Below, one piece after another: positions 1,405 to 62,736 of a DNA stretch of 64,000 nucleotides. Source of the DNA: a virus (taxonomy: Duplodnaviria > Caudoviricetes); the IMG/VR virus record IMGVR_UViG_3300049988_000286, positions 416,001 through 480,000 of that record. One strand, given 5' to 3'. How positions within the stretch are numbered: the stretch's first letter is position 1; each line of letters starts with the position of its first letter. The position numbers were made by a program, and so were the translations under genes. Under the pieces are notes generated by a model. The model was not told where the DNA came from and made no database searches. It was given only the letters and a program-made list of their open reading frames with translations.

Positions 1405-2615
1405 GCCGCCTCTCCCTCATCGGCAGCGGGCTGCCCACCAGCAAGTTTCTCCTTGCGCCGGAGGCCTTCGAACCGAAGGAGAACGAGCATGATTAGACCC
1501 GCCTTTTCAGGGTTTTTGAGAAAGCGGTTCAACTCGGGGGCGACTAGATTCGCGTCACCGCCTTTACGAACGAAATCATAGGCGGCGCGGTAGTAACGCT
1601 CCGGCCACCAATTGTTACCGTTCTGAACTTCCATCATCAAGGCGTGGAAGTTTGGATACGGTTGACGCACGGCAAACTGCATCGCGAGGGCAGTGACGGC
1701 ATTCATCGTCTCGACCTTCATTCGCGACTTGATATCATCCGGCTGGATTGTTTCTTTGTCTGCGGCAATATTCTTGAAATACTGATCGAGTTGAGCGGTA
1801 GCGAATAGAGGGGTCACTTGCGCGATCTGGCGCGCTACCACGGCGACATCGGCAATCTGTTTACGCTCGCTGGGCGGCTGAAGCGGTCCGGTGTTGCCCG
1901 GCTCCTTCGCACCACCATCCACCGCCGCGTCGCTCTCCGGTGCAGCACTGGTCTCTTGCCCATCCTGTGCGGCCATCTGCTGCTTGAGGAGGATTTTCGC
2001 GATACCGGTGAAGAGTTGCTGCATCTGCTCCTTCGAGAGCAGTCCGCCATGAGCGTAGTCGTGCAAGGGCTTCATCGACGGACGCTTGAGCGTCTGCGGT
2101 GCCTTCGCGCCAATGAAGTTCATCCACGAGGACACGTAAGCGGCAATGGCCTGATCCTGCTGCGCCTCCTTCGCGATCCCGTTCGCGAGTTCGCTCACCT
2201 TCGCGTCGAGTGTCTTCGGATTGACGAGTTTGCGAAATGCGTTGGCGATCGTCTTCTGCTTGTCATCAGCGGGACGGGGTGGCTTGTTCACCGTCTCGGC
2301 GGCGGTGCCATAGATGGCACGGAAGGCCTGATCCTCGTCCATGGTGATGCCGATCGAGGTGCGGAAGAATTCTACCACCCCGGATACCGTGGGTCGGGCT
2401 TGCTGTTGCGCGGCGAAATACTTCCACTCGTCCATGACCTCTCTCGCCGTTGCGGCAAGGTCATAGCGACCCGCTGCGGAATGGCTCCCGAGGTCGGCGA
2501 GCATGTCGTTGCCGAATTGCTTCAAGGCGTGCTTGGTGCGATCTTTGGCACTGCTGGCTACGCCCTTGAGGAAAGAGGCGATGTCCTCGTTGAGCATTTG
2601 TTCAAAGGTATCCAC
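1401..2615 (-). CDS. Probable head-internal protein (GTG start, MDTFEQMLNE)
   Basis: SD-like AAGGGGG before GTG at 2615, directly after the upstream stop; N-terminus resembles T4 IPIII MKTYQEFIAE. Confidence 0.65.
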   Translation of the reverse strand: MDTFEQMLNEDIASFLKGVASSAKDRTKHALKQFGNDMLADLGSHSAAGRYDLAATAREVMDEWKYFAAQQQARPTVSGVVEFFRTSIGITMDEDQAFRAIYGTAAETVNKPPRPADDKQKTIANAFRKLVNPKTLDAKVSELANGIAKEAQQDQAIAAYVSSWMNFIGAKAPQTLKRPSMKPLHDYAHGGLLSKEQMQQLFTGIAKILLKQQMAAQDGQETSAAPESDAAVDGGAKEPGNTGPLQPPSERKQIADVAVVARQIAQVTPLFATAQLDQYFKNIAADKETIQPDDIKSRMKVETMNAVTALAMQFAVRQPYPNFHALMMEVQNGNNWWPERYYRAAYDFVRKGGDANLVAPELNRFLKNPEKAGLIMLVLLRFEGLRRKEKLAGGQPAADEGEAA

Positions 2616-2616
2616 C

Positions 2617-2865
2617 TTAATCCCCCTTCTTCTTCGTGGCCTTGACGCCGCGCTTAAATTTTTCAGCATCACCGGTACGAATACCATTGATCAGACGCTT
2701 GCATAGATCGGTAGCCACCTCTTCGGGGTAACTCTCACGAAGCAGCTTCATGAGATTTACCACCGAGGCGATACATTGCTCCCCGCGATGCTCAATGAAC
2801 GCGCTCTTGTCCCGGATCGGTGAATGTGAAAGTTCGTCTAAAAGACTGGTGAATTTACGATCCAT
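2617..2865 (-). CDS. Hypothetical protein (82 aa)
   Basis: Tightly packed ORF in a late operon. Confidence 0.7.
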   Translation of the reverse strand: MDRKFTSLLDELSHSPIRDKSAFIEHRGEQCIASVVNLMKLLRESYPEEVATDLCKRLINGIRTGDAEKFKRGVKATKKKGD

Positions 2866-3124
2866 GGTTCTCGCTCATTTGACGCTTGATGTTCTCCAGC
2901 ATGGTAGCTGCCATTTCTAGACCTTGTTCGAACCCCAAGGAGTAATCACCCCCGGTGGGATCAAGATGGGATCGTAGCTTGAAAATGGCGTTGGTGAGCG
3001 CGGCCCCGACATCAAAGTCCTCTACCACCTCTTCGATAATGACAGGGGCGGGCTCCGCCTCTGCATCCTCCATGAGGTCGAGATAATGTCTGATAATCGA
3101 GTTGTAATCCACGCACACCACCAT
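2855..3124 (-). CDS. Hypothetical acidic protein (89 aa)
   Basis: ORF downstream of TAAATA at 3135-3140. Confidence 0.65.
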   Translation of the reverse strand: MVVCVDYNSIIRHYLDLMEDAEAEPAPVIIEEVVEDFDVGAALTNAIFKLRSHLDPTGGDYSLGFEQGLEMAATMLENIKRQMSENHGS

Positions 3125-53448: not shown

Positions 53449-53682
53449 TCAATCCAGCATCGTCCGAAAACCAAAGAGCCGGAACAGCACTTCATCATCG
53501 GCGCGAATTTTGAAGCGATACCACAACTTCGCCCCACTGACGTATCGCGTCCAGCCGAGTCTGCTGTTTATCCATGTGCCCTGCACCTGCCAGATGAAGG
53601 GGATACCCTGATAGCGACAACCGGCGAATAGTCGGTAAAAGTCAGGATAACCCATCTCGACTACGAGTCGGACCGTGCGCAT
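53449..53682 (-). CDS. Small protein, F-x3-D-x3-F-x-L family
   Basis: FKIRADDEVLFRLF. Confidence 0.55.
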   Translation of the reverse strand: MRTVRLVVEMGYPDFYRLFAGCRYQGIPFIWQVQGTWINSRLGWTRYVSGAKLWYRFKIRADDEVLFRLFGFRTMLD

Positions 53683-53984
53683 TCGATTTCCTTGATTTGA
53701 ACTTTGACAAACATCGCATCGAGGTCACGCATGATGAGGCGGCGGCGCGGTCGTTTATTGGGGAACATCCGTCTTCGCGAGTAGTAGGCGGGACCACGGA
53801 ACAACGGCTTGGTGATCTTCCCGTAACCGGTCACGTAAGGAAATGTCGAGCACAAGAGCGGGATACCGACTTGCCTCGCCCATGCCATGAGGGTGCATAA
53901 CTCCCGCAGGGAGAGCTTACGCTCCAAAGTGCGGTTACGCCCTCGCTGCCATTCTCGCCCTTTACGCGACCCTGACATACTCAT
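53661..53984 (-). CDS. Small protein, related family (start uncertain)
   Basis: W-x-R-x-x-GIP and LIMRDLDAMFVK shared with neighbours. Confidence 0.45.
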   Translation of the reverse strand: MSMSGSRKGREWQRGRNRTLERKLSLRELCTLMAWARQVGIPLLCSTFPYVTGYGKITKPLFRGPAYYSRRRMFPNKRPRRRLIMRDLDAMFVKVQIKEIECARSDS

Positions 53985-54222
53985 CCCCGAGGAACAACAG
54001 GGTAATAGCCATATCGCAAGGCCTCACCATGAAACGTCGATGACGACGGCGCGTCTGATCTGCCATCAATTCATACCTCGAACCTCGGTACACTCGTCGA
54101 TAACCGCGCGCAAAACCCAACCCGGCAATCTGGACACAAGGGACTCCATTGGCTCGACACCAGCGCTTGAATTCATTCACGCGTGAGCACGACTGATTGG
54201 CGAAGAAGTGCGCGTGAGGCAT
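53962..54222 (-). CDS. Small protein, related family (start uncertain)
   Basis: WCRANGVP and FMVRPCDMAITLL. Confidence 0.5.
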   Translation of the reverse strand: MPHAHFFANQSCSRVNEFKRWCRANGVPCVQIAGLGFARGYRRVYRGSRYELMADQTRRRHRRFMVRPCDMAITLLFLGDEYVRVA

Positions 54223-54235
54223 ACCCCGCTATAGT

Positions 54236-54481
54236 TCACAGCATGAGGCGAAACAAGGCTTCATCTTGGGGCCGAACGAGGAAGACCATGGGAGTCGTCA
54301 CGGGACACGGCGGTCCCGAGGCCCGCTCCACCCGTCTAGTCGATACAATGAAGCGCAAAGGCGCTGACATCTCTGCACCCGCGTAGGCGCGACCGCAGTA
54401 CACCACGGGGATACCAGATTGGCGAGCCACTGTCATGGCTGCGACTAGGCGGTTGTAGATGGTGTGGACAACGATACGCAT
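54236..54481 (-). CDS. Small protein, F-x3-D-x3-F-x-L family
   Basis: ARQSGIP; FLVRPQDEALFRLML; SD AAGGA. Confidence 0.6.
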   Translation of the reverse strand: MRIVVHTIYNRLVAAMTVARQSGIPVVYCGRAYAGAEMSAPLRFIVSTRRVERASGPPCPVTTPMVFLVRPQDEALFRLML

Positions 54482-54489
54482 GGCGATCC

Positions 54490-55050
54490 TTTGAAGTCGA
54501 GCGCATAGCGCTCTCCTGATTTGCCTTCAAGCCCTCACTAGCGTTCGGTCTTTCGACAAATCACAAACCTTAACTCATATTCCCATAGATAGAGACGATA
54601 CTCTTTATCCCCTCCAAGACCAACTCATCACTGGGATGCGCGCACATGGGCGCGAACGCTGACCTTGGAGGGGGAAGAAGAATTGAAAACACATTCCCAT
54701 GAGTATCAACGGATTAGCTCGCGCCCTCGGCGTCTATAGCGTGGCTGGTGGTCACCCGAGACCCAGCACTGGCGCGCTCTCCCAGACCCTTTCGGGTCTT
54801 GACGGTTATCTTGAAAGAAGCTCATCTGGGACGCCGCCTATTACCTTGACGCCCAGACGCGGAGGGGTGTCAGCAGGACATGGCCCTCCTCTTTTCGGTG
54901 TCTCTTGCTACCCGCTGTGCGCGGAACCGGCAACACCTACCCGGTCGGCTATCCTGCCCTACATCTTCCCGGAACACGGCGACTACGGCCACCTGCAAAG
55001 TCCATCGAATGTCTATTCAATCGGGCACACGGCCCTTGGATAAATTTGAG
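54490..55050 (-). ncRNA. Candidate large structured non-coding RNA or long 5' leader
   Basis: No credible ORF; nested helices such as the 10-bp 54609-54618/54664-54673 and a GAAA-capped 54784-54799; upstream TTGACA (55079-55084) and TACAAC (55055-55060). Confidence 0.5.
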
Positions 55051-55080
55051 TCCTGTTGTAGAATCCGGCTTCGAGTCGTG

Positions 55081-55350
55081 TCAATTTCGGAATTCAACTA
55101 CAGAGTAATTTATCCCAAATAATACCCGATCCTCTTCTGACGTGAAGATAAACCAAATATGGGGAGCGTGATCTTCCACCAAGGGAGCGCTGGTAAGGTT
55201 AGCCTCGCACCATAGGAGAACTTCATCACGGAGCCACCACCGACTATCGAGCGGTGTAACATTTAGATCGCCGTCGAACAGATCAGCTTTCAACAGCCTG
55301 ATGGTGTCCGCGACGCATGGGACGAGAAAGAAATTAGCACTGCATTCCAA
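55081..55350 (-). CDS. Small protein, F-x3-D-x3-F-x-L family
   Basis: WCEANL...FIFTSEEDRVLFGINY. Confidence 0.65.
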   Translation of the reverse strand: MECSANFFLVPCVADTIRLLKADLFDGDLNVTPLDSRWWLRDEVLLWCEANLTSAPLVEDHAPHIWFIFTSEEDRVLFGINYSVVEFRN

Positions 55351-55762
55351 GGCTCAACGCTCCGGAGAAACGCGGCGGAACACCATCGGCGAGATATTGC
55401 CGGATACGCGCCGCAGCCTGTGCGGCGGTTGGTTCGATGTTCGCCCAGCCACCATCGAAGAGGTAGGAGAACGACACGCCCTCGACTCCGAACACATCGT
55501 TGGCGTACTGGTCCCAGCATTCGGTGCCACGCGGCACCGGGACACCGGCAGCGGGTCCATGGCCGAGCGCGCACGCTACCGTGCCGCAGCCCATCTCCGC
55601 GACCCTATCCGCAACCTTGAGTTCATCCCTCTCCATCAGCGTTTCCTGCGCCGGGCTGTGGAAGTACGTCTCCATGTCGAAGTGGAGGTAGTTGCTCGGA
55701 AGCGCTTCGAGATGGCTCGCCAGCATGGCGAGGTTGTCGGCATGGCGTGGCTCGATCATCAT
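55334..55762 (-). CDS. Hypothetical protein (GCGTVACALGHG motif)
   Basis: 142-aa coupled ORF. Confidence 0.7.
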   Translation of the reverse strand: MMIEPRHADNLAMLASHLEALPSNYLHFDMETYFHSPAQETLMERDELKVADRVAEMGCGTVACALGHGPAAGVPVPRGTECWDQYANDVFGVEGVSFSYLFDGGWANIEPTAAQAAARIRQYLADGVPPRFSGALSLGMQC

Positions 55763-60658: not shown

Positions 60659-61337
60659 AGTGGCTATAGCCCTTGACTAGCCCGACGCGGAACTCGGTCA
60701 CTGCTACGCTTTTATCAAACTGCCCGGTCAACCGATCGGGGAAATCTGCTACCTGCCATGCGGCATGATCCCATGGTTGCACCGAGCGTGCCGGTGCTCC
60801 CTTCCATGCGCCACCGCCAGATGAACTGATTTTGCTCTTCGGCCAATAGGTCTCTGGATCGAGCCCAGCGATGAAGTCGGCACTCGCCCTCTGCGCGTCT
60901 TCGTACTCGGAAAACGGTCCAAGTGTCGTGGAGGTCTTCTCGTCATCTGCCGTCCACCAACTGACTTCCGCATGTAGGACCGATTCGCGACGGGGATAGA
61001 TCGTCACCGGGATGTTCTTGCCACCACGCCGCATCACCATGGCGGTTCGGTGTCGGCCTTCGTGGCCCAGAACAGCCCCGGATGGAAAGGCGACGTTGAG
61101 GAAAGGCATTTCGAAACGCCCAAAGCCTTCATCGCGTCCACGCTCATCCCGGTATTGATCCGCATCGAGGGGGAAAGGGCGGGCAAGGATATCTGCGAGG
61201 ACTTCGGGGGTGGAGGTCAACCGTAGGAAATCCATGGGAGCCATTGTGATGATGAAGGCCCCGTAGCTACCACGAACGCGACCCATGGTGTTGCGCACTA
61301 GCGGGAGATTGCTTTCAAGTAAATCACAGAGCAGCAT
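60648..61337 (-). CDS. ParB/Srx-like protein with capsid-targeting N-terminus
   Basis: MLLCDLLE 4 nt after TAAATA; PFL...VLGHEGRHR. Confidence 0.7.
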   Translation of the reverse strand: MLLCDLLESNLPLVRNTMGRVRGSYGAFIITMAPMDFLRLTSTPEVLADILARPFPLDADQYRDERGRDEGFGRFEMPFLNVAFPSGAVLGHEGRHRTAMVMRRGGKNIPVTIYPRRESVLHAEVSWWTADDEKTSTTLGPFSEYEDAQRASADFIAGLDPETYWPKSKISSSGGGAWKGAPARSVQPWDHAAWQVADFPDRLTGQFDKSVAVTEFRVGLVKGYSHFRR

Positions 61338-61384
61338 GGTGTATTTAGATTGACGCCTCGGTGTAGTTCGCGTATCGCCAAGGT

Positions 61385-61549
61385 ATGAACCTTTTCGTCT
61401 CCCTCGTTCTCGCGCTCGCAACCCTCGGCGCGGGCATCATCCTCTCCGTCACGGTGCCACGCTGGTTCGAGCACCGTCATCGCTCGGCGGTGATGATCAC
61501 CATCTGGTTGATCTCGCTGGTGACGGCTGTTGGGCTGATCTTCGCGTGA
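61385..61549 (+). CDS. 54-aa two-TM membrane protein
   Basis: Manually translated (MNLFVSLVLAL...); its TGA overlaps the TyrRS GTG. Confidence 0.55.
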   Translation: MNLFVSLVLALATLGAGIILSVTVPRWFEHRHRSAVMITIWLISLVTAVGLIFA

Positions 61550-62736
61550 ACATTCTCGAACGCCTTCGTGAGCGCGGCCTTTTCAAGGACGCGACCTTCA
61601 CTGCTGCGCCGGAGGTGACCACCGCGTATGTGGGCTTCGACCTCACCGCGCCGTCGCTCCACGTCGGTTCGCTCATCCCCCTGATGGCGATGCGCTGGCT
61701 CGCGATGTCAGGGCACCGGGTCTTCGCACTACTCGGGGAGGCGACGACGCGGATCGGCGATCCCTCGGGTAAGGACGAGACGCGCCGAATGCTCGGTGAG
61801 GATGAGATCGAGCGCAATCGTCAAGGCATCGAGGCGGTCATTCGCCGCATCGTCCCAGACGCGACGATCGTCTCCAACGGCGACTGGTTCAACGGCGTCG
61901 ATCCATCCTTCATGTCGTTCCTCGTCGATTATGGTCCGCACTTCACGGTCAATCGCATGATGGCCATGGATTCGGTGAAGCGTCGGCTCGATCGGCACCA
62001 ACCCCTGACCTTCCTCGAATTCAGCTACTCGCTCTTACAGGCCGTGGACTTTCGAGAGATGCATCTGCGCCACGGCGTTGATCTCCAGATCGGTGGATCG
62101 GACCAGTGGGGCAACATCGTCTCCGGTGTGGAGGTAGTGCGTCGCCGCGACGGGAAGGAGGTCATGGGTCTCACCACGCCGCTGCTCCTCGATCGCGAGG
62201 GCAACAAAATGGGTAAGTCACAGGGTCGCCCGGTCTGGCTCGACGCAGAGATGACACCGGTCTTCGACTTCTTCCAGTTCTGGCGCAACTGCGCGGATGA
62301 GGATGTAGAGCGCTTCTACCTGATGTTCACCACCGTGGCGAAAGTGTCCATCGACGCGATGGTGCGCAGCCGCGTCGCGCCCCTCGATATCAATCGTGTA
62401 AAGAAGGCCTTGGCGTTCGACATCACCGAAGTGGTGCATGGCCGGGAAGCAGCGCGCGCCGCACTCGCCCATGCGGAAGCGGTCTTCGAGCGCGGTGATA
62501 CCACCAAACTCACACCGTCGATGACCCTGACGGCCCCGCGATCTCTCGTGGAGGTCATGGTGGCGCTCGGACTCGCGGAGTCGAAGTCGGCGGCTCGGCG
62601 GCTCATCGCCGGTAACGCCGTGTCTCTCGATGGTGAAAAGATCAGTCAAGATCGCCTGATTGATCACGATGTCGTAATTCGTGCTGGTAAGAAGGCACCC
62701 TTGATGGTAGAGTTCGCTCCGGAGACAAATCAATGA
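61546..62736 (+). CDS. tyrS: Tyrosyl-tRNA synthetase
   Basis: GFDLTAPSLHVGS (HIGH), IGDPSGK, GGSDQWGNI, KMGKS, C-terminal S4 domain. Confidence 0.95.
   Translation: MNILERLRERGLFKDATFTAAPEVTTAYVGFDLTAPSLHVGSLIPLMAMRWLAMSGHRVFALLGEATTRIGDPSGKDETRRMLGEDEIERNRQGIEAVIRRIVPDATIVSNGDWFNGVDPSFMSFLVDYGPHFTVNRMMAMDSVKRRLDRHQPLTFLEFSYSLLQAVDFREMHLRHGVDLQIGGSDQWGNIVSGVEVVRRRDGKEVMGLTTPLLLDREGNKMGKSQGRPVWLDAEMTPVFDFFQFWRNCADEDVERFYLMFTTVAKVSIDAMVRSRVAPLDINRVKKALAFDITEVVHGREAARAALAHAEAVFERGDTTKLTPSMTLTAPRSLVEVMVALGLAESKSAARRLIAGNAVSLDGEKISQDRLIDHDVVIRAGKKAPLMVEFAPETNQ

Follow-up and report, generated by a model that had tools for sequence, protein, structure and literature searches.

A probable stand-alone gene for a large structured RNA, with four paralogs in a 500-kb phage and relatives in Sphingomonadaceae islands

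The window, i.e., the whole stretch of 64,000 nucleotides analyzed here, covers positions 416001-480000 of a virus record that is 499,572 bp long and rated as complete by CheckV. Between two minus-strand ORFs of 89 aa (ending at 55081) and 81 aa (starting at 54481), the interval 54482-55080 is the largest gap of the window, the next one measuring 273 nt on a crude ORF map in which a 114-aa ORF was set aside; the initial annotation had likewise described it as the longest non-coding stretch, and the sequences it named were all found at the positions it gave. The large terminase gene is located 1 kb to the left, on the opposite strand. The 81-aa ORF is the first of four tandem minus-strand genes (53449-54481; 81, 86, 107, and 77 aa) sharing a G(I/V)P motif and without a convincing Pfam family; the 81- and 77-aa products are 29% identical (E = 0.002), and faint matches to the 107-aa protein occur near genome position 126.2-126.6 kb. 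Further to the right, a 142-aa protein is encoded at 55334-55762 (minus strand), with a paralog of 41% identity at genome positions 61237-61650, and a variant of its gene skipping 70 nt (55588-55659) occurs in the DNA run X4.

It is very probable that positions 54495-55050 of the minus strand constitute a real, stand-alone gene for a structured non-coding RNA of about 550 nt that belongs to a new family. A profile search revealed exactly four copies in the phage genome, 72-75% identical to each other, the nhmmer match at this locus spanning 54506-55104. The copy in the window (copy A) is thus one of four old paralogs in the 500-kb phage, and the family, uncatalogued so far, comprises 17 members, namely phage copies A-D and 13 relatives, which come from metagenomes, from large phages related to this one, and from Sphingomonadaceae islands with integrases and restriction systems. 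The features of copy A are listed below from the 5' to the 3' end.

55079-55084 (minus strand), -35 box TTGACA, kept in 4/4 phage copies
55056-55061 (minus strand), -10 box CTACAA, 17 nt after the -35 box, with transcription predicted to start near 55050
54495-55050 (minus strand), whole RNA gene, about 550 nt, both ends predicted from the promoter and the conserved terminal hairpin
55023-55035 (minus strand), 5' hairpin GGGC-N5-GCCC, recognized by eye; GGGC/GCCC becomes GGUC/GACC or GGC/GCC in relatives
54961-55012 (minus strand), 5' domain, an interrupted long stem with the invariant strands AUGGACUUUG and GCCGUGUUCCGGG; some RNAalifold pairs are compensatory (AU/GC/GU, CG/UA)
54927-54944 (minus strand), hairpin CCGG/CCGG following the invariant UAGCCGACCGGG; one CG-to-UA change, otherwise nearly invariant
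54911-54924 (minus strand), optional hairpin CCGC-N-GCGG; CCGC/GCGG becomes CCAC/GUGG, and the hairpin is wholly missing in copy D and in L035
54861-54889 (minus strand), core helices 1 and 2, GGAGGG/CCCUCC with inner UGUC/GACA; 100% of cells pair and 8/10 pairs changed on both sides (17 sequences)
54823-54859 (minus strand), core helix 3, a 13-bp hairpin including TCTGGG/CCCAGA; 11/13 pairs changed on both sides
54801-54810 (minus strand), invariant strand GAUAACCGUC; AACCGU is invariant in 11 sequences, and RNAalifold draws a weak 3-bp helix of its ends, without covariation
54784-54799 (minus strand), core helix 4, GNRA-capped AGACCC-GAAA-GGGUCU; 6/6 pairs changed on both sides
54720-54776 (minus strand), core helices 5-7; 95-97% of cells pair and 10/15 pairs changed on both sides
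54690-54703 (minus strand), twin element 1, CUC + AUGGGAAU + GUG; the same 8-mer occurs again at 54576-54589
54609-54674 (minus strand), long 3' hairpin with a C-run/G-run base in all members and a variable tip, followed by the conserved AUAAAG; 26-95 nt overall
54576-54589 (minus strand), twin element 2, UCU + AUGGGAAU + AUG, 18-22 nt after the hairpin in 15/17 members
54499-54517 (minus strand), terminal hairpin AGGAGAGCGC-UAU-GCGCUC, the likely 3' end, with no U tract

The description of the interval as ORF-free fails if taken literally, as three ORFs on the plus strand (114, 80, and 67 aa) and one on the minus strand (42 aa) are present inside, but it stands in the sense of non-coding, the 114-aa frame occurring in no other copy. 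This ORF (54699-55043, plus strand) runs antisense to the RNA, and annotation pipelines are likely to mis-call it as a gene. Were it a true gene, with the repeats as its paralogs, its extension over the best-conserved portion of the repeat would find an explanation; nevertheless, copies B, C, and D have no ORF of at least 60 aa on its strand, the indels between copies are not multiples of three and shift its frame, and the substitutions in the repeat are compensatory within helices. Since the ORF is missing elsewhere and the indels break the frame, the conservation is not that of a protein-coding sequence, and this reading, to which we assign practically no probability, is already refuted by the missing ORF in the other copies.

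As for the promoter of its own that the initial annotation had attributed to the RNA, TTGACA followed after 18 nt by TACAAC is indeed present, the reading preferred here being CTACAA after 17 nt, which is kept in the four copies. Alphaproteobacterial promoters have the consensus CTTGAC-N17-CTATAT, which TTGACA-N17-CTACAA fits. The motif TTGACNCGANTCG has only four sites in the 500-kb genome, all at RNA copies, and the promoter-like combination TTGACNCGANTCG...GATTCTA, common to the four copies, has no further occurrence in the genome; in phage-type members the -10 region is kept as TTCTAYACA or TTCTACAAC. The spacer (55062-55078, minus strand), with the near-palindrome CGACTCG, is conserved in the four copies more strictly than the RNA itself, and it could be an operator. 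Regarding expression, two exact 151-nt contigs in one phyllosphere (leaf) metatranscriptome fall on 54804-55080, against zero on the flanking 2.3 kb, and one of the metatranscriptome contigs extends 30 nt upstream of the predicted start; with a depth of 2-3 in one library, and DNA carry-over possible, these contigs are only a hint of expression. The RNA runs X14-X16 contained almost none of the words of the region, and mapping of X14 onto the stretch gave zero. In runs X2 and X4, pieces of the RNA showed 0-2 differences vs. 5-6% in the flanks, a figure made unreliable by cross-mapping between paralogs.

The relatives were recovered by different routes. Blastn with the region found no counterpart in the phage collection, and three pattern scans of the viral contig collection returned nothing, or four chance matches within coding regions. 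A pattern of two invariant blocks led to two alphaproteobacterial genomes, one of them labelled Sphingomonadaceae, and genome searches around those two added G258, G280, and G435, for a total of five bacterial carriers (Sphingomonadaceae or alphaproteobacterial). Three further members were obtained from a metagenome scan, and five more, in related large phages, through a protein encoded divergently beside copy C; one of these related phages is a 509-kb contig in an NCBI assembly. The RNA is rare, since 3/401 genomes of the order matched in the DNA search and 3/151 of the family with the covariance model; L037 and L038 were false short matches from the DNA search of the 401 genomes and were discarded. 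Homolog collection and a covariation check had been proposed at the outset: the former yielded the 13 relatives, and the latter revealed strong covariation.

The folding energy of the single sequence is little informative by comparison, as the minimum energy scored z = -2.06 for the minus strand and -1.42 for the plus strand against dinucleotide shuffles, so that the comparison with shuffled controls suggested by the initial annotation favored the RNA only marginally. On the four copies together RNAalifold gave -106 kcal/mol for the minus strand vs. -68 for the plus strand, and for 11 full-length members, aligned simply with MAFFT, it predicted 73 pairs, 43 of them with compensatory changes. 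For the 179-nt core a covariance model was built and pairs were counted, on alignments fitted to that model; the unfitted MAFFT alignment yields the same helices. With 11 sequences, 94.8% of cells pair and 31/44 pairs change on both sides, values that 0/500 shuffles reach on any measure, and pairing drops to 32-51% when the partner is slid by 1-3 columns. With 17 sequences the corresponding figures are 94.0% and 35/44, with slid controls at 34-50%. Conserved G-U pairs are found on the minus strand only (e.g., one UG in 15/17 sequences), and the strand of the RNA is therefore fixed as minus. Compensatory changes thus uphold one shared secondary structure in phage copies A-D and in the 13 relatives.

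The helices recognized in the initial annotation correspond to the long 3' hairpin, the terminal hairpin and, within the core, helices 1, 3, 4, 5, and 6; all are real and supported by the family, except that the CGCGC/GCGCG tip is variable and the outer TTGAAG/CTTCAA was seen in this copy only. Helices 5-7 consist of a closing helix, a hairpin with the invariant GGGUCNCGGGYGACCACC and a small GC hairpin, CGCGCC/GGCGCG (54720-25/54771-76) surrounding GCTGG/CCAGC. Besides this block, the unpaired strands AUGGACUUUG, GCCGUGUUCCGGG, UAGCCGACCGGG, and GAUAACCGU are invariant or nearly so, and the near-invariant unpaired strands are alike in phage and island copies. Support for the 5' domain is weaker than that for the core, but real; a covariance model of this domain kept only 7 pairs, as diverged members misalign, and a nine-sequence alignment was used instead.

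The gene probably ends with the terminal hairpin, here formed by GAGCGC/GCGCTC at 54499-54513. With the general form AGGAGAGC-loop-GCUCUCC, this hairpin closes most members of the family and recurs in the same place in D, L045, L054, L057, L059, L060, L062, L030, and L031, its stems covarying by eye. Being devoid of a U tract, it may allow read-through into the gene at 54481. The initial annotation had offered a long regulatory leader for four tandem paralogs as one possibility, and a cis-acting 5' leader (riboswitch or attenuator) controlling the four small paralogous genes at 53449-54481 would agree with the end of the RNA about 15 nt ahead of the start codon at 54481, with the absence of a U-tract terminator between the two, and with the orientation of the next gene, the same as that of the RNA in copies A and B. 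In copies C and D, instead, the next genes converge on the RNA, the downstream proteins are unrelated at every phage copy and in the bacterial loci, and most members end in the conserved terminal hairpin. The four small genes, weak paralogs of each other, are near no other RNA copy, and no one kind of gene lies directly downstream on the same strand across members. As the downstream genes differ or converge at the other copies, the leader reading is rejected, and we hold it for highly improbable.

The 3' module differs from the rest of the molecule in its variability. The base of the long hairpin, CCCCTCCAAG/CTTGGAGGGG in copy A (54609-18/54664-73), changes from CCCCUCC/GGAGGGG to CCCCCCGC/GCGGGGGG in relatives. 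Within any one RNA the two twin elements match exactly over 7-14 nt, whereas from one RNA to another they differ, a pattern found in 17/17 members with 15 versions: the other three phage copies carry AAGGAAAG, AGGAUGAUG, and AUAGGAAUGAU, while relatives carry GUGUGAA, AAGUGAUGAAA, GUUGCAG, and others. In every member the first element is preceded by ACUC and the second by AUCU, and because these prefixes stay distinct plain gene conversion fails as an explanation of the twin identity. No complement of the twin elements was detected within the RNA (with up to 1 mismatch) or in the carrier genomes, and the 14-mer of L036 and the 11-mer of copy D do not occur in the carrier genomes beyond their own two sites. 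The distance between twins, counted by hand, is a multiple of three in only 6/12 members. Several members adopt a rod as their fold of lowest energy, and an arrangement in which twin hairpins swap strands to form a rod was considered and rejected, the pairing between twin and upstream strand being no better within than between members (4.88 vs. 4.56 bp, p = 0.09). Template jumping by a reverse transcriptase and an RNA-guided resolvase were likewise discarded, neither gene being present in the phage.

Matched repeats on both sides of a hairpin also raise the question of whether the locus acts as DNA, with its hairpins functioning in an origin of replication, at a site of packaging or recombination, or as parts of a non-autonomous mobile element, in which case the direct repeats around the long hairpin would represent a target-site duplication or crossover sites. 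The four copies are indeed scattered over the genome, the bacterial ones adjoin resolvases or integrases, the long hairpin has inverted-repeat ends with direct repeats on both sides, and copy A is 1 kb from the terminase gene. Against such an element stand the promoter of the RNA and the compensatory changes, which extend over seven or more nested helices, G-U pairs being confined to one strand. Moreover, the twin elements are identical in each RNA despite the divergence of the family, an identity that a one-off duplication would not give, the phage is without resolvase and reverse transcriptase, and in two DNA runs no joint across the repeats, i.e., no excised form of the hairpin, was observed. 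A DNA-level role is hence judged very unlikely.

No more probable is a protein-titrating sponge of the CsrB/RsmZ type, in which the twin elements would be GGA hairpin loops for a CsrA-like dimer. The CsrA SELEX site is RUACARGGAUGU, and most twin elements read A(N)GGAUG, near that site; the placement of a pair of sites at the base of a hairpin would be appropriate for a dimer, and short hairpin-like GGA motifs are also what CsrB and RsmZ display. Those RNAs have many motifs, whereas this one has two only, with GGA missing in L035, L044, L050, L057, and L059, and its carriers lack CsrA, the Pfam family PF02599 being absent from the phage and from G001, G002, G258, and G280, with control genomes positive. 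A single shared protein would furthermore leave the differences between the sites of paralogs in one phage unexplained, and the family does not conform to the sponge class.

Comparison with catalogued families gave no assignment. The Rfam check envisaged by the initial annotation was run without a family match: cmscan of the whole window with Rfam 15 at gathering score returned tRNAs only, scanning the four copies at E up to 10 returned zero overlapping matches, and no description of this RNA family was found in the literature. GOLLD RNAs measure about 800 nt, are larger than this RNA and are often located beside tRNA genes, whereas 0/4 phage copies stand beside tRNAs. The resemblance to ROOL and GOLLD proposed initially holds for size and kind of carrier and does not extend to membership, the two covariance models of Rfam 15 being unmatched. 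ROOL has approximately the same size as this RNA (about 550-580 nt; Weinberg et al. 2017, PMC5737381; cryo-EM in PMC12286853), and GOLLD is also a large ornate RNA of phages and prophages with its own promoter (PMC5737381, PMC12286853). ROOL further shares many helices, conserved unpaired strands, carriage by phages and prophages, and a stand-alone gene, but the host group, here Sphingomonadaceae and their large phages, and the helix plan are different. Guide-type RNAs, such as the IS110 bridge RNA and the omega RNA of TnpB/IscB (including HEARO), are similar in combining a constant scaffold with short variable address segments and in being carried by mobile DNA; they adjoin their own enzyme gene, while no protein gene is common to the copies here, and they are not known to have two mutually identical address elements, whereas the twin elements are identical. 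No Rfam match to HEARO/omega RNA was obtained, and the neighbors of the four phage copies are without IscB/TnpB domains; the only TnpB lies near L044, at a distance of 1.5 kb and on the opposite strand.

The large phage ncRNA with its own promoter that had been put forward at first is borne out by four paralogs, a shared promoter, minus-strand covariation and the lack of an Rfam family. Its architecture comprises a constant part, made of the 5' domain and the seven-helix core, and a 3' module in which a hairpin of variable tip lies between the twin elements. Host RNA polymerase of the sigma-70 type would start at TTGACA-N17-CTACAA, and the transcript would end at the conserved hairpin just ahead of the ribosome-binding site of the next gene. 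The RNA might then work in trans for the mobile element, its constant core forming a compact body that either contacts a conserved component of the host or packs onto itself, while the matched twin elements would provide each paralog with an address by which it recognizes its own kind or a partner bearing two similar sites. The constant core, the invariant single strands, the occurrence of copies in both phage and islands, and the restriction to one host family suggest such a compact fold; twin elements that are matched yet copy-specific, together with the four paralogs having been kept for so long, suggest a specificity code. Our best guess, tentative and of low confidence, is that the RNA is a scaffold acting in trans, constant in its core and with an address particular to each copy.

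Doubtful, and clearly less probable than the general scaffold, is the more specific proposal of a modular programmable RNA of mobile elements, with no linked protein gene, in which the twin address sets the partner of each paralog, either RNAs of its own kind or targets for which it guides. If this were true, an own-kind partner would imply orthogonal self-assembly of four RNA particles per infected cell, whereas a nucleic-acid partner with two like sites would make the twins a pair of guides, or direct repeats for template jumping by the host polymerase. Large, intricately folded RNAs are rare in bacteria and phages, and, to our knowledge, every such class so far (RNase P, group I/II introns, tmRNA, OLE, ROOL, GOLLD, raiA) has opened up new biochemistry or revealed unexpected assemblies made of RNA only. 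In the present family the covariation is unusually clear, the carriers are mobile elements of one host family only, and the twin elements provide a concrete experimental handle on specificity. The four diverged copies in a giant phage argue for a job in infection over housekeeping.

The genetic surroundings of the RNA vary among its carriers, and no protein is common to all loci. The bacterial copies reside in islands with tyrosine integrases or small resolvases, which also encode type I and type ISP restriction systems and Fic, Dcm, Schlafen/AlbA_2, GIY-YIG, and T5orf172 proteins. The neighbors of the phage copies are all hypothetical proteins, and a Pfam search with 20 of them gave none above curated cut-offs except a marginal DUF1153 (24.8 bits vs. 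23.5). The protein divergent beside copy C (L052:5309-6082, plus strand; genome 257309-258079) is 257 aa long, has 35 database homologs and looks membrane-anchored from its predicted sequence; one homolog has a GAF domain (PF01590), and Pfam finds none in the phage protein. The RNA adjoins the gene for this protein in L044, L057, L058, L059, and L060, is near it in L054 and L062, and is absent in L061, a pairing that may reflect synteny of the phage clade or a functional link. In L062 an inserted HNH endonuclease gene (2608-2991, minus strand) separates the RNA from the GAF-like gene, and a DnaJ gene occurs a few kb from the RNA/GAF locus in L054, L057, L059, L060, L061, L062, and L044, accompanied in L044 by ClpB.

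Two Sphingomonadaceae islands (L039:8550-11002 and L040:9346-12161) have in common a module composed of a resolvase, a hypothetical gene, the divergent RNA and a gene of 144-149 aa that is 81% identical between the islands, the module lying on the margin of a type I restriction locus that includes a YgjP-like peptidase and RhuM. Beside the G258 copy, an ORF (L041:9078-9464, minus strand) encodes a long HLR peptide repeat, derived from a tandem DNA repeat that adjoins the RNA gene.
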